A DNA stretch of 16,119 bases. It comes from a virus. The translations under genes and the position numbers were made by a program. This document shows, in pieces, positions 1,971-16,080 of this stretch. The stretch's first letter is position 1. The number at the start of each line of letters is the position of its first letter. Below the pieces are notes generated by a model, which was not told where the DNA came from, ran no database searches, and was given only the letters and a program-made list of their open reading frames with translations. The stretch lies in the UHGV virus genome UHGV-1638998. One strand, given 5' to 3'.

Positions 1971-2181
1971 AGTGACCACCGTTTATTGTGCATATAGAAC
2001 CCCCTTAGTTGGTGAGTCCATCATACACAATAAACCATATGTGGTTAATTGTTACCATCAGTAAAAATACAGCAGCTTCATAATCACAATCAGACATGCC
2101 AGTGGTGTAAGCTACCAACTGGTTTTTTGTCATTTGTCATGGCAGAATCGTGCCACCTGGTGATATCAAAAGAAAACCATC

Positions 2182-2421: not shown

Positions 2422-2422
2422 G

Positions 2423-3541
2423 ATGAAAGTTAATTCTTTTTTTGTTTTTGGATTAAGTTGCCTTTTTATATCAGGGCCGGGATATTCACAAGATGATAAT
2501 GGCAATGAAAAATTAAATGAGGTTACTGTAAGAGGTAATCACCCAAGAGCAAATGGCATTTGGACTCAATACGAAGGTCTTGATACAGCCCTGCGCGGTC
2601 ATGAAATTCTCACTGATGTCATTGAACCTAATTCACAGTTCTACAACTGGAAAGGTGAGCCAGTAAAAGCCCATGATTTAACAAATCAGAATGCCGATAA
2701 TTATGATAGCGTTCACAATCACTATCAAAACTTCCTGAGTGAAGTATGGAATTTTAAACCAAACACCAACGCTGTCTCCATCTGGGGTGATTCTGCTGCC
2801 ATTGCTAAAGACTCAAAGGCGTGGGGGGCATTCTTTAGCGCTCGTTCATATTTCAAGGCCTTTACAAAGGATGGGAAATATCATGATCTGGCACCGGCTG
2901 GTTCAGATTTCACATTCAATCCAGAAGACTATGATAACCAACTCGTAGGGGTTGAGATTGATGTCCTTAATGGCGGCAAGCCCGGAGTATTCCCCAATAA
3001 GTCCAAAGTGGGCTTACAGATAGTTGGCTTTGGAAATCCAAACTCCATGGCCGTAGAAGTGCGAAGCGAAGATACAGATAAAGATGTACCAGCAGAGAAG
3101 CGTCGCGGTGTCTGGGAAAGTGGGATTTACTTCAAGAATTCTATAGCTGATTATGGCAGGCTCATTGTTGCTGATTTTGATAAAGCCAAGATGGGTTTTG
3201 ACTTTAGGCGATCTCTATTCCGCGAAGGGATAATGCAGGCACGCACAGAAGGTGTTGGTACCGGTATTATCTTGAATGAAGGAAAGTCGGGAGAAATATA
3301 TGGAGGCACTCGCTGGAACGGTTCAGAAGATAAGCGCAACTGGATTTCAATAAGAAACGGCGAAGGTGGAACTCGTATAGTCTCAAATGATAATACTAAA
3401 GAAGTTCTTGCAGTCGACAACGATGGCGGCGTTTACATTAATGGGGATGTTTACATTAATGGCAAGAAATTAAATGACCTACTAAAACTTGATGAAAGAG
3501 TTTCAAAAATCGAAAAACAATTATCAGAATTAAAAAAATAA
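2423..3541 (+). CDS. Secreted protein of unknown function (AT-rich cargo gene)
   Basis: 372 aa; N-terminal Sec-type signal peptide MKVNSFFVFGLSCLFISGPGYSQ; RBS GAGGA; much lower GC than the flanking phage genes; C-terminal Gly/Asn-rich repeats ending in a short coiled coil. No family recognised. Confidence 0.7.
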   Translation: MKVNSFFVFGLSCLFISGPGYSQDDNGNEKLNEVTVRGNHPRANGIWTQYEGLDTALRGHEILTDVIEPNSQFYNWKGEPVKAHDLTNQNADNYDSVHNHYQNFLSEVWNFKPNTNAVSIWGDSAAIAKDSKAWGAFFSARSYFKAFTKDGKYHDLAPAGSDFTFNPEDYDNQLVGVEIDVLNGGKPGVFPNKSKVGLQIVGFGNPNSMAVEVRSEDTDKDVPAEKRRGVWESGIYFKNSIADYGRLIVADFDKAKMGFDFRRSLFREGIMQARTEGVGTGIILNEGKSGEIYGGTRWNGSEDKRNWISIRNGEGGTRIVSNDNTKEVLAVDNDGGVYINGDVYINGKKLNDLLKLDERVSKIEKQLSELKK

Positions 3542-3571: not shown

Positions 3572-6322
3572 TTAATTGCCTTCCAATTTTTCAATTCTTT
3601 TTATTACATCTTGCATCGCTGATACAATTGGTGCTATGAATTGTTCATAACGTAAACCAATCTCCCCATCTTCACCCTCTACATATCCACCAAAGTCGCC
3701 AGTGCCGAGTTGATCAAGTAGGGCTTTAACTTCCTGAGCGATAAAGCCGTAATGGGTACGCTTACCGGCAACCGAAGTGATAACCGTTTTTTTCTTTGGT
3801 ACCCTTACAGTTTCCATGCGAGGAATGCTGACCGTCTCAAGGAAACTACCGTTTTCGTCTTCAACGTTAACAGTATCAAATACCGGGTGCTCAACTTCTT
3901 TTGTAACATATTTTCTTACAAATTTGATTACACCATCAACATTAATTCGCTCGTTAATCTCTTCTGTACTATGGATAATCTCAGTGACCTGCCGTTCTAT
4001 ATATTCAAATCCGTCATCAATTTCTTCAACAACATTCCCCCCACTGATGAAACGATATGATACCGGATGCAGCCCTTTAATAAACTCTATCGATAAGTTG
4101 CTTTCAGCCACATCAGTTTTTAAAGTTCCATCAGATGTTTGAATTGTTCCATTTGCAGCCCAAATAGATGAAGGGCGATTTCCAGATTTACCAACGGTAA
4201 ACATATTATCTACATGCGGGTAAATAGCGGCATTAAAATGTAGTTCATTATTTATTTGAATAAACCCATTACCTTTCGCGGCCAGAATAGTATTTATATT
4301 CGCATCAGGGCCGACAGCGCTAAAAGCAGGTTGATCACCAGTAGTGGCACTATCAAAACGAAATCTATTCACGTCTCCAGAAGAGTATGTGCGATAACCG
4401 AACTCTGCACATGCTCGCCCGTATGCCCCCCCTATAGTGACTATGCCATTTACACCATCAACAGTGATCTGTCGTCGTGCATTGCCGTCCGGATCCCACC
4501 CACTACCAATAAATACTGGATACTGGTCACCGTTACCACCAGCTGCGTGTAGGTGATAAAATCCCCGAGCAGAAGCAATAAGAGAAATATTTTCTTCAAA
4601 TCCAGCTCCGGTAACACGATGCATACGCAATGCAGTAACTAAGTTATCTACACTACCCCACCAATAATAGTCGACATTATCAGCAATACCTACATCCGCG
4701 GTAAGTGTGGCTAACCAAGAATCAGAATATGATGCCTGTACAGTCGTAATGCCATTCACTACGAACGTAGTTTGTATATTGTTGAGCGGAATAAATGGGT
4801 CGCCAGATATACGAATAATTTTCTTCCCCGATACATTGCATTTACCCTGCCCCCAAATGTAACAGCATACATAGGTTGCAGATATTGATGACGGAAATGA
4901 CACCGCGCTGTTATCGATGTTTTTCACTGTAAATGATCCTGATGCCACTGATACCACCGTATACCCAGCATCCCTGATCCATATTGTTTTTCCAATTTCA
5001 TCAACCGTTAAGCCTGGTCCTGTATTTACATTTACGATATTAGTTCCGGCAACAGTTGTGCATTTACCCGCGCGAGAAGCTGGCTGGACTGCGATCTCTG
5101 TCGGGCTTGGGTATTTACTTGGTTGTACTGAAGTCCATGACGAATAGCCATCCGGAAAGAAAACATTACCATAAGTTCCATTAATTGGGTTTCCGCCACC
5201 AACCTGTAGACCGGATACATTGCCAGCATTGCTCCCAAACCTGAAGTTAACACCAAATTGCGGGTGCCCATCCGAACCGCGAACGCCTTCAGTTCCAATA
5301 CTTACAGCCCCGGAACCACCATCAATACGCTGAACAACAGCACGGCGAAGATATCCGGTTCCTGTTATCGTTACTGGCTCTTCAAAAATGAAGTGGCGGC
5401 CGTAGCAGTCCACTTCGGTATTGAGCATGTAGTTTCCAGCAGGAACGAGAATTTGCTTGCCCTTTGGCACTAGGGCGTTTGCGGTAGAGAATGCCGGTGA
5501 GGCGTCCGTTGCGCCGGAATATTCATCGCCTAAGAAGTCTTTAATACTGATAAACTGCGCGTTAAAATCATGCTGCGTACGCCCTACCGCTCCAGCATAA
5601 GGCTGTTTTACGCCAATTAAGGAATCCCCCTTCCCATCATCAGTGCTTGCTAATTCAATGAGGACATCCGCTGCGCTTCCGCTTTCCGGAAGAAGCATAA
5701 TCGGATTACCAGATGAATCCATACCAACAATTTTATTTTTTCGTAACTCAATAGATGGTAATTGTGGGATGCTTTCTTCCGTACGAAGCGTTCTGCTGAA
5801 TAACAAATCTGTATGTGAAGTATTTCCTTCGCTTAATGAATCAGCATAATTTTTAGTTGCTGCATCCTGTGGCCTTACCGGATCTCGCAGATTTCTAATA
5901 TAGTTACTCATGGCATCGTAATAATTTGCCACAAACGACGGTTTACGCAATGCCAGGCTGAACAAACTGCCCACCTGCTGAATCAGCATCGTCAGTTTAT
6001 CGAATGCATCTTCATGCACCTCAGCGAAAAACTTACCCTGATTGCGCAGGTCTGTTTCCTGCGTTGCCTCCAGCTCGCGGGCAATCGATATTTGCCAACC
6101 GTTCGCCAGCGGCGAGGTAAGAACAACACTTCCGCCGTTAAAGCCACCAGCGTTCGTCACGGTGTAGTCAGTATCCAGCACCAGTACCGTGATGTTTTCG
6201 CTCAGGTCAATCACTGAAACGGTAAGGTCTGCTTTCTTGAAAATTCGGAAGGTGTAAGGGAATGATGTCGTAACGCCGTTCCCGGTGTAATCGTTATGGT
6301 CAACTACGGTTGATACCGTCAT
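3572..6322 (-). CDS. Tail fiber / tailspike protein with T7-gp17-like N-terminal anchor and C-terminal intramolecular chaperone (peptidase S74-like) domain; candidate depolymerase
   Basis: 916 aa from ATG 6322 (RBS GGAGA; the listed ORF starts 14 codons upstream). N-terminus …GNGVTTSFPYTF…LDTDYTVT… follows the T7 gp17 pattern. C-terminus HYGFIAQEVKALL…LRYEQFIAPIVSAMQDVIKRIEKLE resembles the self-cleaving chaperone domain of endosialidases. The central region is lower in GC. Confidence 0.85.
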   Translation of the reverse strand: MTVSTVVDHNDYTGNGVTTSFPYTFRIFKKADLTVSVIDLSENITVLVLDTDYTVTNAGGFNGGSVVLTSPLANGWQISIARELEATQETDLRNQGKFFAEVHEDAFDKLTMLIQQVGSLFSLALRKPSFVANYYDAMSNYIRNLRDPVRPQDAATKNYADSLSEGNTSHTDLLFSRTLRTEESIPQLPSIELRKNKIVGMDSSGNPIMLLPESGSAADVLIELASTDDGKGDSLIGVKQPYAGAVGRTQHDFNAQFISIKDFLGDEYSGATDASPAFSTANALVPKGKQILVPAGNYMLNTEVDCYGRHFIFEEPVTITGTGYLRRAVVQRIDGGSGAVSIGTEGVRGSDGHPQFGVNFRFGSNAGNVSGLQVGGGNPINGTYGNVFFPDGYSSWTSVQPSKYPSPTEIAVQPASRAGKCTTVAGTNIVNVNTGPGLTVDEIGKTIWIRDAGYTVVSVASGSFTVKNIDNSAVSFPSSISATYVCCYIWGQGKCNVSGKKIIRISGDPFIPLNNIQTTFVVNGITTVQASYSDSWLATLTADVGIADNVDYYWWGSVDNLVTALRMHRVTGAGFEENISLIASARGFYHLHAAGGNGDQYPVFIGSGWDPDGNARRQITVDGVNGIVTIGGAYGRACAEFGYRTYSSGDVNRFRFDSATTGDQPAFSAVGPDANINTILAAKGNGFIQINNELHFNAAIYPHVDNMFTVGKSGNRPSSIWAANGTIQTSDGTLKTDVAESNLSIEFIKGLHPVSYRFISGGNVVEEIDDGFEYIERQVTEIIHSTEEINERINVDGVIKFVRKYVTKEVEHPVFDTVNVEDENGSFLETVSIPRMETVRVPKKKTVITSVAGKRTHYGFIAQEVKALLDQLGTGDFGGYVEGEDGEIGLRYEQFIAPIVSAMQDVIKRIEKLEGN

Positions 6323-6426
6323 GGCCTGTCTCCAATAAAGCAGCGCCCGGCGCGCATGCATCATCTGGACAGTTTATTACCTAGCAAACCTTATATGAAT
6401 TGAATGAATAACAATCATGAAAGTTA

Positions 6427-6441
6427 TTACCTTTCAGGTAA
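6427..6441. promoter_or_regulatory. Operator-like palindrome TTACCTTTCAGGTAA (perfect)
   Basis: In the divergent region between the tail fiber start (6322) and the LexA-box gene, 38 bp upstream of the LexA box. Confidence 0.6.
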
Positions 6442-6478
6442 AGCTCATATCGTGCTGGATAGTGTTTCAAAGTTTTGC

Positions 6479-6498
6479 TACTGTACATACATACAGTA
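6479..6498. promoter_or_regulatory. LexA (SOS) box TACTGTACATACATACAGTA
   Basis: Matches the enterobacterial LexA consensus TACTG(TA)5CAGTA at all CTGT/ACAG core positions; 20 bp upstream of the ATG at 6518. Confidence 0.75.
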
Positions 6499-6517
6499 AT
6501 TGCATGGAGAACATGAG

Positions 6518-6778
6518 ATGCAACGTCAGTATCATCACCCGCTGGAAAAAGGATTTGCCGAACGCATACACACGCCGGGAGGCGTCCGCTCCCTTGTAGA
6601 AGAATCACATCTGATGACGTTGCTGCGACAACTGAATGAGGACGGATTTAACGTTGATGGCCCGATGGCGGAACTAACTGCCTTGGTGAACTACGTCACC
6701 AGCTCGCAGATGTCCATGAAGGATCTGCAGATGCATCTCGATTACTGTGTGGAAAAACTGAAGCAGGAAACGACTTAA
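6518..6778 (+). CDS. Small SOS-regulated protein, putative antirepressor (86 aa)
   Basis: ATG at 6518 with RBS GGAGAA 7 nt upstream (the listed ORF starts at an upstream TTG); a near-consensus LexA box lies 20 bp upstream. The product is not recognised; antirepressor function is inferred from context. Confidence 0.55.
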   Translation: MQRQYHHPLEKGFAERIHTPGGVRSLVEESHLMTLLRQLNEDGFNVDGPMAELTALVNYVTSSQMSMKDLQMHLDYCVEKLKQETT

Positions 6779-6812
6779 AAAAAGGCCGCATAGCGGCCTT
6801 GTGACATGTCAC
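6777..6812. terminator. Bidirectional terminator region between convergent transcription units
   Basis: 8-bp stem AAGGCCGC/GCGGCCTT (6782..6789 and 6793..6800), A-run on one side so a T-run on the minus strand; followed by the perfect palindrome GTGACATGTCAC (6801..6812). Confidence 0.65.
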
Positions 6813-7000
6813 AGTAATGGTAGCTTAAACACTATAGCCGCGAGAATGACGAAGGTCGCGAAGTAAACGACCTTCGCAGAGGTCTCGCCAAGCCAACCTT
6901 TTCTGATAGCGAATATTACCGCCCAAACATACGCCGTGCCGCATACCACGAAGAACGCAAACCAGAACAGAATCATGCCTATCTTGATCAATATATCCAT
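6809..7000 (-). CDS. Small membrane protein (63 aa, two predicted transmembrane helices)
   Basis: ATG shares a base with the TAA of the RuvC-like gene (TAATG). Translation MDILIKIGMILFWFAFFVVCGTAYVWAVIFAIRKGW… is strongly hydrophobic. The listed 84-aa ORF probably starts at this internal ATG. Confidence 0.5.
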   Translation of the reverse strand: MDILIKIGMILFWFAFFVVCGTAYVWAVIFAIRKGWLGETSAKVVYFATFVILAAIVFKLPLL

Positions 7001-7791
7001 TATTGCCCCACTGCCTTCCCGAGGTCTGGTGCGCGGCGAGGCGTTGTCTCGCCAGGCTCCCACCAGCTCGTCGTGTTGAATTCACGCTGCGCTCTGTCAC
7101 GCACCCTGTCGTTATACCCTGGGTTAGCCATCTCCTGAAGTTGCTGGAGTATCAGGTGGTTGGTAATGGCTTTCGCGTACCAGAGGTTGGCGAATGGGGT
7201 GATCATGCGCGCCGTCTTCAGCGCATCGGCACCGAAAGAAGTTTCTTCGCCCTGCAATGCCTTCTGCGGGTTCGTGATCAGAAGTTTGGTTAACTGCTCG
7301 GCGAAGCTCAGCACCGGCCCCCCGATGGTGGCCGCGATACTGGATCCATATTGCGTATGGTCCTGGAAAAGGAAATCGCCGTAGATACCGAATGAGCCGC
7401 CCTTCAGCAGAGCCTGCACCCATGTAGTTGGCTTTGTCATATCCAGTGGGTCATTGCCGGTCAATAGGCTGTTCATCTGGTTTGCAAACATCCCAGCCAA
7501 TGTCGTGCCTGCTATGTATGAAGCGAGGAATTTAAGCGCCGGTACGCCAGCTGCATGCCCGAACGTGAACATGCTTGCCGTTCCCTGTCCTGGCATGGCT
7601 CCGACCTGCTCTAGGTACGCATGAGTGATTCCGTACTGCCGAACCCATGCAGCTACCGCTGCGCCGTTCACCCTGGACTTTGTGCCGACCTTGATGGTTG
7701 GCATTGCCAGATGGTCGATGTATCCGCCCTGCTCAGTTACGAGAACCAGCGCCCCGCTGCATCCCGGGTCAATCCCTAATATTGCTGTCAT
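7000..7791 (-). CDS. RuvC-like (RNase H fold) nuclease with a C-terminal extension of about 100 aa
   Basis: 263 aa; N-terminus MTAILGIDPG and AYLEQV align with RuvC catalytic Asp7 and Glu66 (from memory); a later GDFLFQDH segment could supply the remaining acidic residues; the C-terminal 100 aa are unassigned. Confidence 0.65.
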   Translation of the reverse strand: MTAILGIDPGCSGALVLVTEQGGYIDHLAMPTIKVGTKSRVNGAAVAAWVRQYGITHAYLEQVGAMPGQGTASMFTFGHAAGVPALKFLASYIAGTTLAGMFANQMNSLLTGNDPLDMTKPTTWVQALLKGGSFGIYGDFLFQDHTQYGSSIAATIGGPVLSFAEQLTKLLITNPQKALQGEETSFGADALKTARMITPFANLWYAKAITNHLILQQLQEMANPGYNDRVRDRAQREFNTTSWWEPGETTPRRAPDLGKAVGQ

Positions 7792-7794
7792 GGC

Positions 7795-7871
7795 TTACCT
7801 CTCAGGTAATTTAAATCCACATTAGAGTTAAAATAAATAGCTATGCGCATATTTTGTTACCAGCAAGGTAA
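7795..7871. promoter_or_regulatory. Internal operator pair flanking an AT-rich promoter-like region: two perfect TTACC-N5-GGTAA sites
   Basis: TTACCTCTCAGGTAA at 7795..7809, 4 bp upstream of the RuvC-like ATG and overlapping its RBS; TTACCAGCAAGGTAA at 7857..7871. Both lie in the 117-bp gap between the P-like gene and the RuvC-like gene. Confidence 0.6.
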
Positions 7872-7908
7872 TTATACAGGCGTAAAAAAATGCGCTGCCG
7901 CGCTGGTG

Positions 7909-8694
7909 CTACCTGATGAGTCCCGCTGCCTTCCCTCGCCGGTATTCCTCCATCAACCACTGGGCCGGTGTCAGCCCTCCAAGGGTGGCGGAATTCGGCA
8001 TGCATCCGAAGCTTTTTCCGGGAGGGTGGTAAGCACTCCCCCCTGTGTCATCCGGTGTTTGTATCGGCTCTGGCTTCGCCTGGATGCTGAGAACCGGATC
8101 CGGAATCTGGTGACCGGCCGCCACTTTCGTAGCCCATTCCTCAAGCAGTTTGCGCGCATGCCTCTCAACTTCCACCTCACTCAGCTGGCGCTGGTACATC
8201 GCACGGCGGGTATCGCATACAATCCAGTACATGACCGGGTGGCGCCACGGGAATCTCTCAGGTCCTCCGGGCTGTAAGCTTTTCTCTTTGGCGTAACGGT
8301 GAAACTCCCCCATCACGTCCTCGATGCTCACGCCAAGCACCATTTTGCTGTCCTTGCACCACTTGATGAACTGCCCGGGCGAAGGCCAGAACGGTGATTC
8401 ACTGGCGCGGGCATGACGCATACCTGCCGATACCTGCTCGCGGGTACGGATCCCACCTTCAGCGAATGCGGCTATCCACTGGCGCTTCGCGTCGGTTTCC
8501 TGCTGCGCGGTCTTCAGGTTGGTCTGCTCAGCTGCAGGAAAGAGTTGCTTAAGCTGTTTAAACAGGGCATCGACGAGACGCTCTGCGCTGATGTTAACAA
8601 CGTTGTCCTGCTGATCATGGTGATTGTCCGGGCCCATCATGCGAGCCATGGCACCAGCATCACGATTCTGAATTGCTGCGAATACGTTATTCAT
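7909..8694 (-). CDS. P: Replication protein P-like (helicase loader)
   Basis: 261 aa; the segment KRQWIAAFAEGGIRTREQVSAGMRHARASESPFWPSPGQFIKWCKD closely parallels lambda P (RRQWVLAFRENGITTMEQVNAGMRVARRQNRPFLPSPGQFVAWCRE) as I recall it. Confidence 0.8.
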   Translation of the reverse strand: MNNVFAAIQNRDAGAMARMMGPDNHHDQQDNVVNISAERLVDALFKQLKQLFPAAEQTNLKTAQQETDAKRQWIAAFAEGGIRTREQVSAGMRHARASESPFWPSPGQFIKWCKDSKMVLGVSIEDVMGEFHRYAKEKSLQPGGPERFPWRHPVMYWIVCDTRRAMYQRQLSEVEVERHARKLLEEWATKVAAGHQIPDPVLSIQAKPEPIQTPDDTGGSAYHPPGKSFGCMPNSATLGGLTPAQWLMEEYRRGKAAGLIR

Positions 8695-9461
8695 AAGAAA
8701 TCCTTCCAGCCCTCAGGGCTGTTCCAGTGTGGTACGTCATCGTCAGAGCTGTCACCGCGCTTTCCTGCCGCTCTTTTTCTCCTGTTCATCAGCAGCCGGG
8801 CAAACTTCTGCTCCCACTGCACGTGTTGCATCACATTGCCTTCCGCCATCCAGTAGGTGATGAATTCAATCAGGTCTGATTTCTTGTACCCGTCTGCAGG
8901 AAGTGCATGACCCCACATCCTGGCGCGCATGACGAAGTCATCTGACGGCTGCCAGTTTTCATGCATGGTGAATTTGCCGATCGGTTCCCCGATACCTGGA
9001 ACGACAACGGGAGGGATTTGAATTCCTTCGCGCGCAGAGAGAGGGGTTTTATTTATATCTTCCTCTTCCTCTGGTAACTCTTTTTGTAACGCTGCTCGCG
9101 TTACATTTTGCGTTTCACGTTTGCGGTGTTCTGCGACTCTTCTGTTTGTAAGTGCCCGTTTTTTCGATGATTCACCGTTGTGACGCTCAAAGTTAGGCAG
9201 TACCAGCTTTTCGTCGACATATGCGAGCCAGCCAACAGCGATCAATGCATCAGCGAATCCGGTAATAAAAGCGAGTCTGTCCAGTACTCCCTTTGTAACG
9301 CTGCCAGCGTTACCGTCTATTGTCTGCTGATCGGCCCATGCCCAGATGCGAACCAGCTTCCCGAGAACGGCATCCGGGTCGATATTCAGTAGCTCGGCTA
9401 TCTGAAATATTTCAGGCTTATCAGGGGTGATCACCTCGACCTTAATCCAGCTGCTGGCCAT
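8691..9461 (-). CDS. Putative replication initiation protein (lambda O position; YdaU/DUF1376-like N-terminus from memory)
   Basis: 256 aa; strong RBS GGAGGTGA; lies immediately upstream of, and is translationally coupled to, the P-like gene; acidic linker and basic C-terminus. Family assignment is from memory only. Confidence 0.5.
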   Translation of the reverse strand: MASSWIKVEVITPDKPEIFQIAELLNIDPDAVLGKLVRIWAWADQQTIDGNAGSVTKGVLDRLAFITGFADALIAVGWLAYVDEKLVLPNFERHNGESSKKRALTNRRVAEHRKRETQNVTRAALQKELPEEEEDINKTPLSAREGIQIPPVVVPGIGEPIGKFTMHENWQPSDDFVMRARMWGHALPADGYKKSDLIEFITYWMAEGNVMQHVQWEQKFARLLMNRRKRAAGKRGDSSDDDVPHWNSPEGWKDFL

Positions 9462-9670
9462 CAGATCACCTCCGGCACGTTGCCTTTCGCAGCTTCATCC
9501 ATAATCCGTTTAATCTCCGCCTGGCGGCGCAGACTTGAGTTGATGGCGCACTCAACGCAATGGCCGTTATAGACGTAACGCTCACTGTCATGACCGTGTT
9601 TGCACTTTTTACCGGTGTAATAACGCTTAAGACCTGCCTTTGCAGCGTCCAGACGAGTGATAATCTCCAT
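9461..9670 (-). CDS. Small zinc-ribbon protein (CxxxH…CxxC), function unknown
   Basis: 69 aa; RBS GAGG 7 nt upstream; stop overlaps the start of the next gene (TGATG), whose start is preceded by GGAGGTGA. Confidence 0.5.
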   Translation of the reverse strand: MEIITRLDAAKAGLKRYYTGKKCKHGHDSERYVYNGHCVECAINSSLRRQAEIKRIMDEAAKGNVPEVI

Positions 9671-9689
9671 TACGCAACCTCATTGACGT

Positions 9690-9704
9690 TTACTATTACG
9701 GTAA
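9690..9704. promoter_or_regulatory. Operator-like site TTACTATTACGGTAA (9/10) upstream of the replication genes
   Basis: Located between the terminator and the RBS (GAGG) of the 9461..9670 gene. Confidence 0.4.
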
Positions 9705-9763
9705 TTTTGTGCGATGGCCGAAAAAAGATCAACCATATTCGGATCATTATTACCTGAGAGAAC

Positions 9764-9776
9764 TGAATAGATATGA
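9764..9776. repeat. 13-mer TGAATAGATATGA, copy 1 of 3
   Basis: Exact 13-bp match to 15968..15980 and 16031..16043; lies immediately beside the terminator after the Cro-like gene. Confidence 0.5.
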
Positions 9777-9779
9777 AAA

Positions 9780-9797
9780 GACCGCCAGAAGGCGGCC
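9780..9797 (-). terminator. Putative intrinsic terminator just downstream of the Cro-like gene (tR1-like position)
   Basis: Minus-strand hairpin GCCGCC-UUCU-GGCGGU followed by CUUUUCAU, within 40 nt of the stop at 9820. Confidence 0.45.
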
Positions 9798-9819
9798 TGA
9801 TGGGGTTTAGAGGGAGGTT

Positions 9820-10050
9820 TTATTCGTAGAAGAAGATGGCCAGTTCCGGCTTTGTTCTGACCCATCCGCGCTGTTTGCATGCCTTAAACAGCCCATTCAT
9901 CAATGTCTTACCTGGCATTTTCCGGCGACCTGTCAGATGCGTCTGGATGTAATGGCTGGTAGTTCCTGCCTCGTCAGCAAAGGCATTTCGCTCATCAGGA
10001 GTGAGTTGCAACCAGTGTTTTTTGAAGTCGAATTTTTCGTTCTCGCTCAT
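9820..10050 (-). CDS. Cro-like small DNA-binding regulator (YdaS-like)
   Basis: 76 aa, divergently transcribed from the repressor gene; HTH-like segment AFADEAGTTSHYIQTHLTGRRK; position equivalent to lambda cro. Confidence 0.55.
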   Translation of the reverse strand: MSENEKFDFKKHWLQLTPDERNAFADEAGTTSHYIQTHLTGRRKMPGKTLMNGLFKACKQRGWVRTKPELAIFFYE

Positions 10051-10086
10051 AGCTATTGCCTGATATTAATTTCAGATAACAAATAT

Positions 10087-10149
10087 TCACCCAGAAGGTA
10101 ATAATAATCAAGGTTTGTTACCTGTCGGGTGCATTTACCTGTGAGGTAA
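10087..10149. promoter_or_regulatory. Right operator cluster in the divergent switch region: three TTACC-N5-GGTAA-type sites
   Basis: TCACCCAGAAGGTAA at 10087..10101 (9/10), TTACCTGTCGGGTGC at 10118..10132 (weak) and TTACCTGTGAGGTAA at 10135..10149 (perfect), between the Cro-like start (10050) and the repressor start (10205). Confidence 0.7.
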
Positions 10150-10204
10150 ATTCGCTTTTAATTGAACCACTAACTAATTCATATATGAGGCGAATCACCA
10201 GAGC

Positions 10205-10795
10205 ATGAAAAGTATTCAGGATATCCGCAGGCAGAATATTAACGATATCATCGACCGTGACTTTAACGGGGTGCAGACTCGTCTGGCGGAAAAACTGGGA
10301 ACTCAGGCCAACCTGGTGAACCGCTGGGCCCGCGGGCAGAAGGTTATCGGCGACACGGTGGCGCGCAAGATTGAGAAGGCGGCGAACAAGCCGTCGAACT
10401 GGCTGGACGTAGACCACTCATTATCTGCTGTTGCCATACCGCAGGAGGAGATCACCCCTTCCGATATCGGCCAGCTGGCGGCGCATAATCTCGAAGCGTG
10501 GATGCAGAATAACCGCGACCTGTCGTCTCAGGGAAAGGTGTCTAAAGCGTCCGGCGTTGCCCAGGCGACAATCCAGCGCATGCTGAACAATGAGGTTAGC
10601 GTTTCTATCTCCACCCTGGAGGCGATCGCTGGCGCGTTCGGGCGCCGCGGCTATGAGTTGCTCATCCATCCCCGCGACCCGGCGACCATCCATTACGACC
10701 GGGCCCGCTACGCATTGTTACCTGAGAGCGAGAAAAGCAAGATTGAGAGCTACGTCGATTTTGTGATTGTTCAGAACGGTAAAGCGCAAGATTAA
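10205..10795 (+). CDS. Prophage repressor, dual HTH, no recognisable LexA-like autocleavage domain
   Basis: 196 aa; two XRE-type HTH-like segments (LAEKLGTQANLVNRWARGQ and VSKASGVAQATIQRMLNNEV); no GxSM serine-peptidase motif; divergent from a Cro-like gene across an operator-rich intergenic region. Confidence 0.65.
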   Translation: MKSIQDIRRQNINDIIDRDFNGVQTRLAEKLGTQANLVNRWARGQKVIGDTVARKIEKAANKPSNWLDVDHSLSAVAIPQEEITPSDIGQLAAHNLEAWMQNNRDLSSQGKVSKASGVAQATIQRMLNNEVSVSISTLEAIAGAFGRRGYELLIHPRDPATIHYDRARYALLPESEKSKIESYVDFVIVQNGKAQD

Positions 10796-10815
10796 AACCA
10801 TATATTTCAGATACT

Positions 10816-10840
10816 AAGCCGCCATTGAGCGGCTTTTTTA
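10816..10840 (+). terminator. Rho-independent terminator after the repressor gene
   Basis: Stem AAGCCGC/GCGGCTT with loop CATTGA followed by TTTTTTA, 20 nt after the stop at 10795. Confidence 0.7.
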
Positions 10841-10852
10841 TTGCCAGAAGCG

Positions 10853-10929
10853 TTACCTTACAGGTAATTTTTTATAATCATACCTATTGACTTCAAACCA
10901 CATAAGGATAATTATTACCTCAACGGTAA
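10853..10929. promoter_or_regulatory. Left operator cluster: two perfect TTACC-N5-GGTAA palindromes
   Basis: TTACCTTACAGGTAA at 10853..10867 and TTACCTCAACGGTAA at 10915..10929, between the repressor-gene terminator and the first gene of the rightward early operon. Confidence 0.7.
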
Positions 10930-10946
10930 CACTGAGGTAACGAATT

Positions 10947-11096
10947 ATGCAGTGGAAAATCATCAACGGTTGGTACTGCGTTACGGCGTGCGGGCTGATG
11001 AGCACTAAGTGCCGCACTCTGCATGAGGCCATCAACTGGGCGTTTGTCACCAAGATGGCAGTCAAAACTGAAATGGATATGGGGGTGAGCAAGTGA
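10947..11096 (+). CDS. Small hypothetical protein (49 aa, Cys-rich)
   Basis: ATG at 10947 after GAGG, immediately downstream of the left operator cluster; stop overlaps the next start (GTGA). Below the ORF-track cutoff. Confidence 0.3.
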   Translation: MQWKIINGWYCVTACGLMSTKCRTLHEAINWAFVTKMAVKTEMDMGVSK

Positions 11097-11392
11097 ACAT
11101 CCAGCAGATCAATAACCTAAAAAGCATCATGACCAGCATCGACAGCGACTACCAGCTGAGCCAGTTGCACTACGAGCGCCAGGTAGAGCTGATCGACGCC
11201 ATTAAGCATCACCAGCTGCAGGAACCTTTCTATGCGCTGGAGCGCAAAGGCGTGCGCAAGGAGATTCTGGAAGAGCTAATGATGAATCCGGAATTTGAAG
11301 AAACTCTCGCTGCATTCCAGAGCGCGCTGACCAGCATCATCGCGAAGTGGGATCTGGCTGACCAGTTGGACACGGCGAGGAACGCGGCATGA
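11093..11392 (+). CDS. Hypothetical acidic protein (99 aa), first conserved-size gene of the recombination operon
   Basis: GTG start preceded by GGGGGTGAG; overlaps the upstream small ORF stop and the downstream exonuclease start. Confidence 0.5.
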   Translation: MNIQQINNLKSIMTSIDSDYQLSQLHYERQVELIDAIKHHQLQEPFYALERKGVRKEILEELMMNPEFEETLAAFQSALTSIIAKWDLADQLDTARNAA

Positions 11393-12210
11393 AGCCAGGA
11401 ATTTACTTCGACATCAGCAACGAGGATTACCACTCCGGAGACGGCGTGAGTAAGTCGCAGCTGGATATGGTTGCGTTGAGCCCGGCCCTGCTGCAATGGC
11501 AGAAATCAGCGCCGGTCGACACCGAAAAGCTGAAAGCGCTGGATATGGGCACCGCCCTGCACTGCCTGCTGCTGGAGCCGGAAGAGTTCGATAAGCGTTT
11601 CATCGTGGCGCCGCAGTTCAACCGCCGCACAGCAGCCGGAAAAGAGGATGAAGCAGCGTTCCTGAAAGATGTCGAGAACATGGGCATGACGGTTATGGAT
11701 GCCGAACAGGGCCGCAAGCTGAATCTTATGCGTGACAGCGCGATGGCCCATCCGGCGGCGCGCTGGCTTCTTGAGGCGGAAGGTTTCTGCGAAGCGTCGC
11801 ACTACTGGACGGATTCGGAAACCGGAGAGCTGTGCCGCATTCGCCCGGATAAGCGCCTGAAGAATCATCCGGTTCTGCTGGACGTAAAGAAGGTTGCGGA
11901 CATGGAGCGGTTCTCCCGCCACATCGAGGAATTCCGGTACCACGTTCAGGACGCCATGTACCGCGAAGGCGCGCAGCAGACCACCGGTGAGCCGCACGGA
12001 TTCTTTTTCCTGGCAGTGAGCGAAACCATCGACTGCGGCCGCTACCCGGTGCGCGTTTTCGAACTGGATGCACAGGACGTTGACGCCGGGCATGCACTGT
12101 TCCGCCGGGATCTGAATACCTACCACCAGTGCCGTGAGTCTGGCGAATGGGGTGGATTTGAAATTATCAAACGCCCCGAGTGGGCACGCAAACAGGATAA
12201 GTACGTATGA
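11389..12210 (+). CDS. PD-(D/E)XK family exonuclease (recombination partner of the annealing protein)
   Basis: 273 aa; RPD…LLDVKK resembles a PD-(D/E)XK nuclease motif; RBS GAGG 8 nt upstream; paired with the Bet-like gene. Confidence 0.65.
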   Translation: MKPGIYFDISNEDYHSGDGVSKSQLDMVALSPALLQWQKSAPVDTEKLKALDMGTALHCLLLEPEEFDKRFIVAPQFNRRTAAGKEDEAAFLKDVENMGMTVMDAEQGRKLNLMRDSAMAHPAARWLLEAEGFCEASHYWTDSETGELCRIRPDKRLKNHPVLLDVKKVADMERFSRHIEEFRYHVQDAMYREGAQQTTGEPHGFFFLAVSETIDCGRYPVRVFELDAQDVDAGHALFRRDLNTYHQCRESGEWGGFEIIKRPEWARKQDKYV

Positions 12211-13088
12211 GCAACGACATCGCAATCACATCGCAGCCTGGCGCAACCGTTGGCACCGCTGCGGCAATCTTCAGCCCTGAGGGCATGGACCGCCTGGTGC
12301 GTTTCGCAACCCTGATGGCTGACAGTAAGGCCACCGTTCCTGCGCACCTGGCAGGAAAGCCTGCTGACTGCCTGGCTGTGACCATGCAGGCGGCGCAGTG
12401 GGGCATGAACCCGTTCGCTGTGGCGCAGAAAACACATGTGGTTAACGGCACGCTTGGTTATGAAGCGCAGCTGGTAAACGCGGTTGTGTCCTCCTCCAAT
12501 CTGCTGGCCACCCGCCTGAATTATCGCTGGGATGGTGACTGGTCGAAAGTAAACGGGAAATCCGACAAATCGCCGAACCTGACCGTTACCGTATGGGCAA
12601 CCCTCAAAGGAGAATCAGAGCCGCGCGAGCTGACGATCAGCATGGCCCAGGCCGGTGTTCGGAACTCCCCTCTATGGGAGCAGGATCCTCGACAGCAGCT
12701 CGCATACCTTTGCGTTAAGCGTTGGGCTCGCCTGCATTCCCCTGACGTCCTGCTTGGCGTGTACACCCCTGACGAATTGCAGGAAACGGCACCGCGCGTT
12801 GAGCGCGATATCACGCCGACACCCGCTACCGCGTCCGGCATGAACAAACTGATCAACTCCAAGTCTGAGCAGCACCAGGAGGAGAAGCCGAAGAGCAGCG
12901 ACGACCGCGATCCAGAAGAAATTCTGTGCGCCTTCACTGATGCAGCGATGAACTACAACACGCTGAAAGATCTGGACAAGGCATACAAATACGTTGCCAG
13001 CAAGCTCTCTAACGACGATGACCGACTGGCTAAAGCCACTGACGTGTACACCATCCGCCGAGATGAGCTGAACGAAGTCCCAATGTAA
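12207..13088 (+). CDS. bet: Single-strand annealing recombinase, Red-beta (Bet)-like
   Basis: 293 aa; segments AAQWGMNPF and ERDITPT resemble lambda Bet (ANQYGLNPW, ERDITPV) from memory; directly coupled to the upstream exonuclease (ATGA overlap). Confidence 0.7.
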   Translation: MSNDIAITSQPGATVGTAAAIFSPEGMDRLVRFATLMADSKATVPAHLAGKPADCLAVTMQAAQWGMNPFAVAQKTHVVNGTLGYEAQLVNAVVSSSNLLATRLNYRWDGDWSKVNGKSDKSPNLTVTVWATLKGESEPRELTISMAQAGVRNSPLWEQDPRQQLAYLCVKRWARLHSPDVLLGVYTPDELQETAPRVERDITPTPATASGMNKLINSKSEQHQEEKPKSSDDRDPEEILCAFTDAAMNYNTLKDLDKAYKYVASKLSNDDDRLAKATDVYTIRRDELNEVPM

Positions 13089-13095
13089 TCACCAC

Positions 13096-13114
13096 CGTGG
13101 CGCCACGGCGCCAC
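13096..13114. repeat. GC-rich palindrome CGTGGCGCCACG with overlapping GGCGCCAC repeat
   Basis: Perfect 12-bp palindrome immediately after the stop of the 12207..13088 gene; no following T-tract. Confidence 0.4.
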
Positions 13115-13137
13115 ACCTGCAACCAAGAGAGGTATTT

Positions 13138-13386
13138 ATGAAAGGTGCATTTGGTAAGAAGGAACTCCTGGCGGTGGTGCCACTGTCATGGAGCACGATT
13201 GACCGCCTGGAACAGGCTGGCGAATTCCCGTCTCGTTTCTGGATCACCGACCGCCGCTGTGCGTGGGACCAGAGCGAAGTTGAAGCCTGGCTGGATAAAC
13301 GTAAGGCGGCAAGCCCGGCGACGTTCACCGGAAAAAAGCCTCCAGTTGACCGCCGCGTTTATCGCCCGGTGAGTGCAGCTGCATGA
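13138..13386 (+). CDS. alpA: AlpA-family transcriptional regulator / excisionase-like protein
   Basis: 82 aa; the segment LLAVVPLSWSTIDRLEQAGEFPSRFWITDRRCAWDQSEVEAWL matches the AlpA/Xis-type HTH pattern; RBS GAGG 7 nt before the ATG; sits between the recombination genes and int. Confidence 0.7.
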   Translation: MKGAFGKKELLAVVPLSWSTIDRLEQAGEFPSRFWITDRRCAWDQSEVEAWLDKRKAASPATFTGKKPPVDRRVYRPVSAAA

Positions 13387-13481
13387 CGGCGCTGAAGAAG
13401 CATATCGGCAGATGGTCAGATGTGTACCTGTATCTGGCCGTGGTCGCCTACCTGATGTGGCTGGCGGCGGTAATCAGTTGA
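13383..13481 (+). CDS. Small hydrophobic peptide (32 aa, one predicted transmembrane helix)
   Basis: ATG overlaps the AlpA stop (ATGA). Translation is MTALKKHIGRWSDVYLYLAVVAYLMWLAAVIS. Below the ORF-track length cutoff. Confidence 0.3.
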   Translation: MTALKKHIGRWSDVYLYLAVVAYLMWLAAVIS

Positions 13482-13495
13482 GAGGTCTGGATCAA

Positions 13496-13792
13496 ATGAA
13501 AAAGACGAAACTTGAGCGCTATCACGAAGACTACGTCTCGCAGCGCCGTGTTGAAAGAGTGGTGGCAGTAACGCCGGAAGCCATGGAGATCGAAAGCCGG
13601 GCCATCGAGCGCGAGCGCCGCGGTCATTATCGCATCGCGGCCCGCCTCTGGCTCCAGTGCCTGGATGCGGCTGTTGGTGAAGTTGAGCGCGCCCGTATCG
13701 CGATGCGCCGCCAGCAGTGCATCACCAAAGGTAACCGCACCCCGCATCTGGACTACAGCGGGATCGGATGTCGCGGGGTGGTTTATGACTAA
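13496..13792 (+). CDS. Hypothetical regulator, possibly PerC-like transcriptional activator
   Basis: 98 aa from ATG 13496 (RBS GAGG upstream). Basic protein with the segment GHYRIAARLWLQCLD, which I recall as resembling PerC-family prophage activators; identification is weak. Confidence 0.45.
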   Translation: MKKTKLERYHEDYVSQRRVERVVAVTPEAMEIESRAIERERRGHYRIAARLWLQCLDAAVGEVERARIAMRRQQCITKGNRTPHLDYSGIGCRGVVYD

Positions 13793-13943
13793 CCCGCACG
13801 ACGGGATCACCGTGGGCAGTGTCACGCTGCCCTATTCCATCATTCGCCGTGGATGGGTAGCACCGAACGGCGACGTTATCAGAAACCCATTGAAGGCTCA
13901 GCGCCTGGCCGAGCTGATGAACTGTAAGAAGGTGGCGGCATGA
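13785..13943 (+). CDS. Small hypothetical protein (about 52 aa), translationally coupled to the methyltransferase
   Basis: ATG at 13785 preceded by GGGGTGG; overlaps the upstream stop (ATGACTAA) and the downstream start. The listed ORF 13665..13943 probably starts at this internal ATG. Confidence 0.4.
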   Translation: MTNPHDGITVGSVTLPYSIIRRGWVAPNGDVIRNPLKAQRLAELMNCKKVAA

Positions 13944-14587
13944 CTGGCAAATACACTCTCATTTACGCAGACCCGCCTTGGGTATACCGTGACAAAGCAG
14001 CCGACGGCGAGCGCGGCGCCGGCTTCAAGTATCCGGTTATGAACGTGCTGGACATCTGCCGCCTGCCTGTGTGGGATCTGGCTGCCGAAGATTGCCTGCT
14101 GGCTATGTGGTGGGTTCCAACACAGCCGATTGAAGCGTTGAAGGTTATCGAAGCGTGGGGATTTCGCCTGATGACGATGAAGGGATTCACCTGGCACAAA
14201 ACGAATAAGCACAAAGGCAACAGCGCCATCGGCATGGGACACATGACCCGGGCGAACAGCGAAGACTGTCTGTTTGCGGTGCGCGGGAAACTGCCGGCGC
14301 GCATGGACGCTTCGATCTGCCAGCATGTCACGGCGCCGCGCCTGGAGAACTCGCGCAAGCCGGACGTGATCAGAGAGAAGCTGGTGCAGTTGCTTGGCGA
14401 TGTGCCGCGCATCGAGCTATTCGCCCGCCAGTCGTCGCATGGGTTTGACGTTTGGGGAAACCAGTGCGAAGGCCCGGCGGTGCAGTTGCACCCTGGTTAC
14501 GCGCTGGATATCGCCGGGATAACGAGGGCATTCGGACATGCTCCGTTGTCACCAACAGACAACCAGGGCCGGGAGCGTGCGGCATAA
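13940..14587 (+). CDS. MT-A70 family N6-adenine DNA methyltransferase (orphan, no cognate nuclease seen)
   Basis: 215 aa; N-terminal LIYADPPWVY, a DPPW catalytic motif typical of MT-A70/Dam-like phage methyltransferases; start overlaps the upstream ORF stop (ATGA); RBS GGTGG. Confidence 0.8.
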   Translation: MTGKYTLIYADPPWVYRDKAADGERGAGFKYPVMNVLDICRLPVWDLAAEDCLLAMWWVPTQPIEALKVIEAWGFRLMTMKGFTWHKTNKHKGNSAIGMGHMTRANSEDCLFAVRGKLPARMDASICQHVTAPRLENSRKPDVIREKLVQLLGDVPRIELFARQSSHGFDVWGNQCEGPAVQLHPGYALDIAGITRAFGHAPLSPTDNQGRERAA

Positions 14588-14622
14588 TTCATCAGCGAGA
14601 TTTAAATAGCCATTTAATTCGG

Positions 14623-15873
14623 CTACTGACTTTCCATCCACCTCTCAAACTTCGACGGGGAGAACGGTACCAGATCGGTGTGCTCCCCATTAATCCAGGA
14701 ATCAACCATATCTGCCCACTGCTGCAACATATAGGCTCGCTGCCGGGCATACTCCGCTTTGTTGTAAACCGCGCGTACGCCCTTCTGCTCATGTGCCTGT
14801 GCCTTCTCGATCCAGTCTGATGGATAATCAGCTTCATGCAGCAGCGTGCTTGCCGTACGGCGCAGGTCGTGCACCGTGAAGTCCTGTATCTTCTCGCCGT
14901 CTCTGTTTATGGCCTCCACGGTACGGTTTACCAGCGAGTTCAGCGCCGCGTTCGATAACGGCTTACGGAAGTTGTAGCGCCCGGGCACCAGGTATTCACT
15001 GCCGCCAGCACACATCTGCAACCCCACCAGCAGATCCTGCGCCTGCTTCGGCAGGTAAATCACATGCGCACGCCCGGCCTTCATCCTGTCAGCGGGGATC
15101 GTCCATGTCCATTTCTTGAAATCGATCTCTGCCCAGGTCGCGTAAGTGAATTCGCTTTTTCGCACCAGCGTCAGCAGTACCAGCTTGAGAGCCATCTTCA
15201 TTGTGCCCATCGCTCCGATGTCGTCCAGCGCGCGGAAGAAAATGCCGATCTCCTCTGGCGACAGTGTGCGCTCGCGCGGCTTAAACATAGCGATGGATGA
15301 TGGCTTAATGTCGGCAGCCGGATTGAACAGGCCGTGCCCGCGGTCGTTGGCATACCGGTACACACTGCTGATTATCTCCCTGACCTGAATCGCCCTCGCC
15401 CGGCCGCCACGCTCGACGATACGATCGCACAGGTCGCGCACCACCCTGGTGGTTATCTCAGTCATCATCTTGTTTCCGAGCACCGGGAGGATATCACGCT
15501 CAATAACCGCCTGCTTCATGGATCGGGTGCTGTCGGCCAGGGTGACATATTTCATGTAGGCGTCGGTATATACCGCGAATGTTTCTGCGCTGGAAATCTG
15601 CCTGATACCGTCACGTTTTGCCGCAGCAGGCGACTGGCCTGACTTCAGCAACTTTTTGGCGGCAATAAGTTCCTCGCGCGCTTCCGCCAGGCTGATACCG
15701 TCACGACCGTACTGACCGATCACCAGCGTTTCCCGGCGGCCGTTAATGCGGTAGTCGTAGCGGAACGAGACAGATCCTGACGTGAGCACGGCGACATACA
15801 GCCCGTCACGGTCGGAAACCTTATACAGTTTCTCCTGCGGCTTCAGATTTTTCAGTTTGGTATCGGTAAGCAA
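14623..15873 (-). CDS. int: Tyrosine site-specific integrase, P4-like family
   Basis: 416 aa; N-terminus MLTDTKLKNLKP… is typical of P4-type integrases; C-terminal HDLRRT and a conserved Tyr region (AVYNKAEY). Adjacent to the att core. The listed start is TTG; no in-frame ATG nearby. Confidence 0.9.
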   Translation of the reverse strand: MLTDTKLKNLKPQEKLYKVSDRDGLYVAVLTSGSVSFRYDYRINGRRETLVIGQYGRDGISLAEAREELIAAKKLLKSGQSPAAAKRDGIRQISSAETFAVYTDAYMKYVTLADSTRSMKQAVIERDILPVLGNKMMTEITTRVVRDLCDRIVERGGRARAIQVREIISSVYRYANDRGHGLFNPAADIKPSSIAMFKPRERTLSPEEIGIFFRALDDIGAMGTMKMALKLVLLTLVRKSEFTYATWAEIDFKKWTWTIPADRMKAGRAHVIYLPKQAQDLLVGLQMCAGGSEYLVPGRYNFRKPLSNAALNSLVNRTVEAINRDGEKIQDFTVHDLRRTASTLLHEADYPSDWIEKAQAHEQKGVRAVYNKAEYARQRAYMLQQWADMVDSWINGEHTDLVPFSPSKFERWMESQ

Positions 15874-15915
15874 AATTCACCCGTAATGCATCCATGTTTT
15901 TGTCGGTATGAGAGT

Positions 15916-15930
15916 ATACCTTTCAGGTAA
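15916..15930. promoter_or_regulatory. Operator-like palindrome ATACCTTTCAGGTAA (9/10 match to TTACC-N5-GGTAA) upstream of int
   Basis: Lies between the int start (15873) and the arm-type repeats; 14 of 15 bases identical to the site at 6427..6441. Confidence 0.5.
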
Positions 15931-15950
15931 TACCGTCACCTGTACCGTCG
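15930..15950. promoter_or_regulatory. Putative integrase arm-type sites, right arm (ATACCGTCACC, TGTACCGT)
   Basis: The 11-mer ATACCGTCACC at 15930..15940 is repeated exactly at 149..159 in the attL arm. TACCGT occurs twice on each arm. Confidence 0.45.
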
Positions 15951-16064: not shown

Positions 16065-16080
16065 ATCATTCCCACTCAAT
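16065..16080. repeat. attR: attR core (ATCATTCCCACTCAAT)
   Basis: Exact 16-bp direct repeat of 62..77; overlaps the last codons and stop of the host guaA-like ORF. Confidence 0.75.

Follow-up and report, generated by a model that had tools for sequence, protein, structure and literature searches.

Dispersed palindromes in a defective Escherichia coli Uetakevirus prophage as probable operators of its Rep repressor

Which protein reads a palindrome that recurs throughout a prophage, and how could one regulator serve so many scattered promoters? This question is raised by the virus genome UHGV-1638998, a DNA stretch of 16,119 nucleotides (nt; hereafter the window), in which TTACC-N5-GGTAA recurs upstream of gene after gene. 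The window is a complete 16-kb defective prophage of the genus Uetakevirus (epsilon15-like temperate podophages), integrated at the 3′ end of guaA in Escherichia coli. Comparison with studied relatives indicates that the palindromes are very probably operators of the prophage's own repressor, Rep (10205–10795), a member of the epsilon15 gp38/SPC32H Rep family. For epsilon15 and SPC32H, the motif, the protein that reads it and the route of induction have already been established or annotated, and the genus is known for its dispersed layout; what the present comparison may add are the site classes that carry no epsilon15 annotation (the switch triple, the proximal partners, int and gp40) and a fixed 62-bp pairing of sites. 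Full-text searches of the open literature, with the motif and with 'operator' plus genus names, turned up no description of the sites.

A sequence-only reading of the window had listed six perfect palindromes, at 6427, 7795, 7857, 10135, 10853 and 10915, and all were present as described; its estimate of 0.015 perfect matches by chance was also correct (16119/4^10). Dinucleotide-preserving shuffling gave a mean of 0.01 perfect sites, and 0 of 200 shuffles reached six. When one mismatch was allowed, the window held 10 sites against 0.30 expected. Three of these, at 9690, 10087 and 15916, match at nine of ten positions, as had been proposed, and a fourth 9/10 site, at 12586, had been overlooked; because it lies within recT, the earlier statement that all sites are intergenic holds for the listed sites and fails for this one. 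The 12586 match was rejected as an operator, being intragenic, absent from BUCT554, epsilon15, SPC32H, Tyrion and ZX5, and within chance (approximately 0.3 expected); it is probably a chance match outside the regulon. Among two-mismatch sites, 10118–10132 (8/10) stood out by in-register conservation in seven genomes. Half-site pentamers were fivefold denser in intergenic than in genic DNA (14.5 versus 2.9 per kb). A similar density of the palindrome in unrelated host DNA had been named as counter-evidence, and none was found: approximately 35 kb of host flank from four loci (L008–L011) contained 0 perfect sites. In the intact sister prophage of E. coli EP91B, the approximately 16-kb structural-gene block contained no site with at most one mismatch.

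The sites and accompanying promoter elements are listed below by position in the window, with 'operator' standing for the probable function.

6427–6441, unstranded: perfect operator between the divergent ant and tailspike genes; the syntenic epsilon15 site (19895–19911) is annotated protein_bind 'repressor'.
6481–6496, plus strand: LexA box, CTGT-N8-ACAG, over the predicted −10 region of the ant promoter (P_ant).
7795–7809, minus strand: perfect proximal operator of the promoter at the RuvC position, in identical register in 7/7 genomes for RuvC and DUF1064 genes alike.
7857–7871, minus strand: perfect distal operator, 62 bp from 7795; the epsilon15 counterpart (35906–35922) is annotated 'repressor'.
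9690–9704, minus strand: 9/10 site adjoining the −10 of the predicted replication-gene promoter, identical in BUCT554.
9750–9764, minus strand: 7/10 site, the degenerate distal partner of 9690 at a distance of 60 bp; the match is 9/10 in Tyrion, ZX5 and a Klebsiella prophage.
10087–10101, unstranded: switch operator O_a, 9/10 (TCACC...GGTAA), in the predicted P_cro spacer.
10118–10132, unstranded: switch operator O_b, 8/10 (TTACC...GGTGC), in register in 7/7 genomes.
10135–10149, unstranded: switch operator O_c, perfect, 70 bp upstream of the rep ATG, overlapping the predicted P_rep −35.
10853–10867, plus strand: perfect distal P_L-like operator, directly past the rep terminator (10816–10835); the epsilon15 counterpart is annotated 'repressor'.
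10884–10919, plus strand: sigma-70 promoter-like site (P_L), CTATTGACT-17-(T)AATTAT, a 9/12 match, for the gp37-like/RecE/RecT/xis operon.
10915–10929, plus strand: perfect proximal P_L operator, 62 bp from 10853, adjoining the −10 and covering the expected transcription start.
12586–12600, unstranded: the chance-level 9/10 match inside recT.
15916–15930, minus strand: 9/10 site 43 bp upstream of the int ATG, with the outer mismatch GGTAT in 7/7 genomes.

Several of these positions are fixed relative to one gene. The end of the 6427 site is a constant 77 bp from the ant ATG in the relatives compared, whereas its distance to the tailspike ATG ranges from 63 to 107 bp; its centre lies approximately 55 bp upstream of the LexA box, upstream of the predicted P_ant core. 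The site said to overlap the ribosome-binding site of a RuvC-like gene does so, as 7795–7809 contains the Shine–Dalgarno sequence GAGAGG and stops 3 nt short of the ATG. The 9750 site lies directly past the cro terminator (9779–9798), and only the TTACC half of the 9690 site is kept in epsilon15 and SPC32H. O_b, 31 bp from O_a and 17 bp from O_c, is perfect in epsilon15, SPC32H and the Klebsiella prophage.

The sequence-only reading had proposed a motif scan of related prophages; run as a pattern scan allowing at most one mismatch, this showed that the sites recur at syntenic positions. Against 0.2–0.7 sites expected in each scan, we found 15 in epsilon15, 18 in SPC32H, 14 in BUCT554, 15 in Tyrion and 14 in ZX5, with 10 in a 17-kb stretch of the Klebsiella prophage and 15 distinct sites in the intact E. 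coli EP91B prophage with its flanks; the few intragenic ones look like chance. The non-chance sites of these relatives fall into nine fixed positional classes.

Class 1: a close pair upstream of terS.
Class 2: a single site upstream of gp3/gp4.
Class 3: ant/tailspike.
Class 4: the lysis/serotype-conversion intergenic region.
Class 5: upstream of int.
Class 6: the P_L pair, with a third site in epsilon15 and SPC32H.
Class 7: the rep/cro triple.
Class 8: cro terminator/gp40.
Class 9: the pair before the RuvC or DUF1064 gene.

Intergenic alignments revealed invariant half-sites and spacers that are free to vary: 58 distinct sites contained 54 distinct spacers (28% G+C), and because this set was picked by half-site match, only the spacer statistic is informative. 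The palindrome also occupies syntenic positions in 80 IMG/VR loci, collected by a scan seeded on the conserved Rep helix and encoding Reps 75–98% identical to the query. A perfect site lies 70 bp before the rep ATG in 80/80 of these loci, and 134 of their 135 adjacent perfect pairs are spaced by 62 bp, although many loci are near-duplicates and the 135 pairs are not independent events. Class 4 is different in the window, which has only TTACT-N3-GGTAA at 2052–2064 (minus strand); the operator there is perfect in epsilon15 and matches at 9/10 positions in SPC32H, BUCT554 and Tyrion. With its spacer 2 nt too short, this looks like a decayed operator, and the lysis promoter may consequently be under looser Rep control here.

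The assignment of the sites to a repressor is already present in the public records of epsilon15. Eight protein_bind features, labelled 'repressor' and noted as 'lysogeny', appear both in the authors' GenBank entry (AY150271.2) and in the RefSeq record. The annotated sites are found ahead of terS and of gp3, in the interval between gp19 (ant) and the tail fibre gene, behind the repressor gene (three sites) and in front of the RuvC-like gene (one site); five of them read ATTACC-N5-GGTAAT and the other two coincide with perfect pattern matches. They share half-sites and spacer length with the window sites, and syntenic window sites were found at ant/tailspike, at P_L and at the RuvC-position promoter.

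The window encodes three proteins that matter for reading or relieving these sites.

10205–10795, plus strand: rep, 196 residues, matching PDB 5D50_A at 3e-48.
9820–10050, minus strand: Cro-like gene, encoding a 76-residue helix-turn-helix (HTH) protein homologous to epsilon15 gp39 and matching phrog_35 at 2.7e-10.
6518–6778, plus strand: ant, 86 residues, matching PDB 5D50_E 'Anti-repressor protein' at 9.3e-44 over its full length.

The match of Rep to the SPC32H repressor 5D50_A spans residues 1–192, and residues 91–192 match the C-terminal domain structure 5D4Z at 1.7e-22. Rep has its HTH DNA-binding domain at the N-terminus, followed by an HTH-like middle domain and a C-terminal domain, and it aligned end to end with six family members. 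A Pfam search of Rep returned HTH families only and no S24 peptidase domain. SPC32H Rep is reported to bind palindromic DNA as a tetramer in which paired DNA-binding domains come from different dimers (PMC9638917), and its N-terminal, middle and C-terminal domains serve DNA binding, dimerization and tetramerization/Ant binding, respectively (PMC9986798). In ZX5, repressor overexpression abolished free phage, and transcripts for holin and endolysin fell by over 99.9% (PMC9782041). Three things make Rep the best candidate reader: the epsilon15 annotation, the reported palindrome binding and the requirement that a lysogen keep many lytic units silent. The window Rep is 96% identical to that of BUCT554 and 46% identical to Salmonella-phage Reps, and across the seven Reps (46–96% identical) the stretch NLVNRW in the DNA-binding domain is invariant, in parallel with the unchanging half-sites. 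The sequence-only reading had also suggested that one regulator acts through a palindromic operator at many dispersed promoters, and the syntenic sites in seven related genomes, the epsilon15 annotation and the Rep homology bear this out.

Some points weigh against assigning the sites to Rep. The assignment at this element comes from sequence comparison, with binding by the SPC32H homologue taken from the literature, and the epsilon15 'repressor' labels may rest on experiment or on prediction. The predicted promoter positions other than P_L are weak consensus matches. The target of the 6427 site (ant, tailspike or both) is uncertain, since the site lies upstream of the predicted P_ant core. 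Neither a tblastn search of phage records nor the helix-seeded IMG/VR scan, which returned close relatives only, revealed a homologue with a changed recognition helix; the tblastn search, with the Rep DNA-binding domain against 50,697 phage records, matched 36 records only, all from the epsilon15-like group. Finally, the putative recognition helix of the Cro-like protein, AGTTSHYIQTHLT, is as invariant as the half-sites, so conservation cannot tell which of the two proteins, or both, reads the motif. A covariation test of Rep against the Cro-like protein was likewise uninformative, because all seven Reps keep NLVNRW and all Cro-like proteins keep AGTTSHYIQTHLT.

The Cro-like protein is accordingly the other candidate reader. 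It is an HTH protein whose PHROG family is annotated 'transcriptional repressor' and is weakly matched by the Rep DNA-binding domain too, its helix is unchanged in seven genomes, and its gene diverges from rep across three operators, an arrangement in which shared sites would resemble those of lambda Cro and CI. The epsilon15 record, however, assigns the sites to the repressor, Rep is the protein reported to bind palindromic sites, pairwise comparison showed no similarity between the two, and a lysogen depends on the lysogenic repressor to keep dispersed lytic promoters silent; a PDB search found no relative of the Cro-like protein. It is quite possible, if not what we would expect, that the Cro-like protein binds at least the switch sites in addition to Rep, and very unlikely that it is the sole reader of the motif. 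A different doubt concerns the 15916 site alone, which might be part of the attP arm (an Int arm-type or integration host factor (IHF) binding region) kept for recombination. The site adjoins ATACCGTCACC (15930–15940), overlapping it by one base; ATACCGTCACC recurs at 149–159 near attL, and in epsilon15 it is annotated as an integrase site (26873–26882). Moreover, the region is 90% conserved overall, so that conservation of the site says little, and the same mismatch is present in all genomes. On the other side, the spacer is the most variable stretch of this conserved block while both half-sites are invariant, as in bona fide operators, and the int ATG lies at a constant 43 bp from the site in 7/7 genomes, which leaves the attP-arm explanation improbable. 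ATACCGTCACC itself occurs once per att arm, in the same orientation, and the epsilon15 integrase-binding annotation suggests that the two copies are likely Int arm-type sites.

The palindromes might also bind no protein at all, being passive parts of a promoter cassette spread by duplication or recombination sequences at mosaic junctions. Three promoters (P_L, RuvC-position and gp40) do share one cassette design, and homology to other phages breaks beside operators, with RuvC or DUF1064 following 7795 and a Klebsiella phage match beginning at 10946. We nevertheless consider this scarcely credible: sequence between sites diverges, spacers vary and half-sites alone are invariant; some sites stand alone, without a cassette (6427, 15916 and, in relatives, those at terS and gp3); and recombination junctions are compatible with operator function. 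Chance or a compositional artefact, for which nothing speaks besides the intragenic 12586 site, is practically negligible given the shuffles, the empty host flank and the empty structural-gene block. An explanation at the RNA level found no support either, as no Rfam family was detected anywhere in the window, and the hairpin-like match at 10914–10941 was rejected as an RNA element because it consists of two overlapping operator half-sites. That stretch contains a third GGTAA half-site (TTACCTCAACGGTAACACTGAGGTAAC) after the proximal P_L operator, identical in BUCT554, and its transcript could form a hairpin that sequesters the GAGG Shine–Dalgarno sequence of the 49-residue gp37-like gene.

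Three early promoters appear to follow one design: a distal operator, approximately 20 bp, a CTATTGA element (−35), 17 bp, and a −10 that adjoins the proximal TTACC. Centre-to-centre spacing of the operators is 62 bp at P_L, 62 bp at the RuvC-position promoter (in 7/7 genomes) and 60 bp at the gp40/replication promoter. P_L, with TTGACT-17-AATTAT, is the best sigma-70 match of its region and its −35 is invariant in seven genomes. The RuvC-position promoter is predicted at 7805–7840, between 7857 and 7795, with the −10 TTAAAT, and a conserved replication promoter is predicted at 9700–9732 (TTGATC-17-CAAAAT) upstream of the gp40-like, DnaT-like and P-like genes. At the switch, the putative P_cro has an invariant −35, TTGATT, at 10105–10110, and TTTACC at 10134–10139 is a candidate −35 for P_rep. 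An alternative P_cro prediction, CCGACA-16-TATTAT, was rejected, since its −35 is not kept in epsilon15 or SPC32H, whereas TTGATT is invariant. At the RuvC position the −35 (7833–7838, minus strand) reads TTTATT here versus TTGATT, TTGAAA or TTGATA in six relatives, a possible down-mutation.

These arrangements suggest how Rep might act. Tetramer binding, Ant action and LexA control are drawn from the literature, to which we add promoter positions, 62-bp clamping and autoregulation that we infer here. Rep would silence each lytic transcription unit directly, with no cascade. A tetramer with DNA-binding domains paired in trans would present two DNA-reading heads. At P_L (10853/10915) and at the RuvC-position promoter (7857/7795), the proximal operator would adjoin the −10 and cover the start, with the distal operator 62 bp upstream; as 62 bp corresponds to approximately six helical turns and hence to the same helix face, one tetramer could clamp both sites. 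The replication promoter (9750/9690) would present a 60-bp pair, with a 7/10 distal and a 9/10 proximal site here. At the rep/cro switch, the sites at 10087, 10118 and 10135 would overlap the divergent P_cro and P_rep and thus repress cro and probably provide rep autoregulation; from its place 17 bp upstream of O_c, O_b could act against P_cro and perhaps in favour of P_rep. Single sites would serve ant/tailspike (6427) and int (15916).

Induction would proceed by antirepression. The earlier reading had noted a 'LexA-box gene', and the LexA box is confirmed: 6481–6496 is the sole CTGT-N8-ACAG in the window, is perfect, lies 22 nt upstream of the ant ATG and is kept with its surroundings in four genomes. 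The gene itself is that of the antirepressor Ant, encoded divergently from the tailspike, which is the position of SPC32H ant and epsilon15 gp19. In secondary accounts of SPC32H, Ant is produced after LexA self-cleavage (PMC7380047), and tetrameric Ant binds two Rep dimers and splits the Rep tetramer (PMC9638917; PMC9986798). In this prophage, DNA damage would remove LexA from 6481–6496, Ant would be made and the Rep tetramer would be taken apart. We also put forward, tentatively and as something that may well not hold, that one Rep tetramer clamps the 62-bp pair (distal operator at approximately −61, proximal operator over the start) and keeps the promoter within a micro-loop of six turns. 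The LexA box would take the place of the proximal operator at P_ant, so that full ant expression would need both LexA loss and Rep release. The structural mechanism of Rep repression 'has not been extensively characterized', in the words of one secondary source (PMC9986798), and the micro-loop, if true and not yet described, would provide a specific structural mechanism for silencing a whole prophage promoter by promoter. The invariant 62-bp pairing over approximately 90 genomes offers a handle on how tetrameric Rep engages DNA.

Every testable defining feature of the epsilon15/SPC32H Rep–Ant system (PDB 5D50, 5D4Z) was found in the window at the level of sequence. Shared are homologous Rep and Ant, the LexA box at ant, TTACC/GGTAA half-sites with a 5-nt spacer, syntenic positions and 62-bp pairs. 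The window copy differs from epsilon15 and SPC32H in being a 16-kb deletion derivative without morphogenesis genes or the terS and gp3/gp4 operators, in its degenerate lysis/O-antigen intergenic site, and in having two P_L operators rather than three. Antirepressor types differ within the group: the 86-residue Ant is found in the window, BUCT554, epsilon15 and SPC32H, and anti-repressors of approximately 230 residues in Tyrion and ZX5. As Reps only 46% identical share the half-site and NLVNRW while antirepressor types differ, operator recognition may not set immunity specificity in the genus.

The arrangement may resemble lambda CI/Cro in its divergent rep/cro switch with three in-register sites (10087, 10118 and 10135), which would overlap two putative, consensus-based promoters, and cooperative or looping binding by a repressor oligomer is plausible. 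It differs from lambda, where CI undergoes RecA-dependent S24 autocleavage: Rep has no S24 domain, its C-terminal half matches the Ant-binding domain of 5D4Z, and induction here would run through a LexA-controlled antirepressor. The earlier statement that the layout is more dispersed than that of lambda stands, with nine conserved sites of at most one mismatch plus the 8/10 switch site in six intergenic regions, as compared with the two tripartite clusters of lambda (OL and OR); intact relatives carry 14–18 sites of at most one mismatch per genome, a few of them intragenic and likely chance. Unlike in lambda, operators are also found at replication, nin-region-type, int and tailspike promoters and, in intact relatives, at terminase, head and lysis promoters. 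The Gifsy/Fels-2 antirepressors and 186 Tum are alike in that SOS reaches a non-cleavable repressor through a small LexA-repressed antirepressor (PMC7380047). The window Ant differs from these in matching SPC32H Ant. A 2013 paper reportedly described SPC32H Ant as structurally distinct from the Gifsy/Fels-2/186 Tum antirepressors. Phage P1 C1 likewise combines one repressor, many scattered operators and antirepressors, with asymmetric 17-bp operators and an unrelated protein. Mycobacteriophage L5 gp71 silences its prophage globally through tens of dispersed 'stoperators', which are asymmetric and orientation-dependent, lie mostly inside transcribed regions and act as roadblocks; the window sites, unlike those of L5, are palindromic and promoter-associated. 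The likeness of P1 C1 and L5 gp71 to Rep is by functional analogy only, with no homology claimed.

The identity of the element rests on its ends, its gene order and its closest relatives. Megablast places the window in Uetakevirus: the closest DNA match is Enterobacter phage BUCT554 (88.8% identity over 73%), and the best matches are all Uetakevirus phages. A 16-bp core, ATCATTCCCACTCAAT, forms a direct repeat at 62–77 and 16065–16080 that marks attL and attR, with approximately 40–60 bp of host DNA outside it at each window end. ATCATTCCCACTCAAT is the attP/attB core of ZX5, placed at the 3′ end of guaA (PMC9782041), where it coincides with the guaA stop codon region; ZX5 thus shares the attachment site, and because the core at both ends equals that of ZX5, the whole prophage lies inside the window. 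The intact EP91B sister prophage occupies the same chromosomal site, between guaA and yfgI. Uetakevirus gene order and integration at the guaA 3′ end were both found, with the remaining genes arranged as follows.

188–1979, minus strand: lysis cassette.
2182–3541, plus strand: two genes at the serotype-conversion position (79 and 372 residues).
3572–6364, minus strand: tailspike.
6809–7003: gp18-like open reading frame (ORF).
7000–7791, minus strand: 263-residue ORF, a RuvC'-'gp17 fusion.
7909–9670, minus strand: lambda-P-like, DnaT-like and gp40-like replication genes.
10947–14587: gp37-like gene, RecE/RecT, xis, activator and methylase.
14623–15873, minus strand: int.

The larger (372-residue) gene of the serotype-conversion slot had no PHROG match, and the slot is unlike both the GtrA/GtrB/glucosyltransferase set of BUCT554 and the O-antigen ligase-like gene of epsilon15, which points to a swapped cargo module with no function assigned.

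The 'RuvC-like operon' of the sequence-only reading was borne out as to its operator and promoter position; the gene itself is an in-frame deletion fusion. Residues 1–83 of the 7000–7791 ORF are 93% identical to the epsilon15 RuvC-like resolvase, and residues 83–263 are 97–99% identical to the C-terminus (last 181 residues) of the virion protein gp17, with the in-frame joint at 7537–7551 and a 3-bp microhomology. As estimated from the intact EP91B prophage, the deleted stretch is approximately 24 kb. With it went all morphogenesis genes but the tailspike, and also the operators at terS and gp3; the genes that persist are those for immunity, Ant, replication, RecET, int, lysis and the tailspike and those at the serotype-conversion position. 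The site list is thus an annotated regulon map of a defective E. coli prophage that still has immunity, antirepressor, O-antigen-related, tailspike and lysis genes. None of 5,426 complete E. coli genomes contained the RuvC/gp17 junction. An identical fusion protein is nevertheless encoded on 20 public E. coli contigs from several sources, among them NCBI HAJ3016815.1 and a 180-kb contig from the European Nucleotide Archive (ENA) that carries the same 16-kb element between guaA and yfgI. On this ground we reject an assembly artefact behind the missing structural genes and regard the element as a real, inherited defective prophage.

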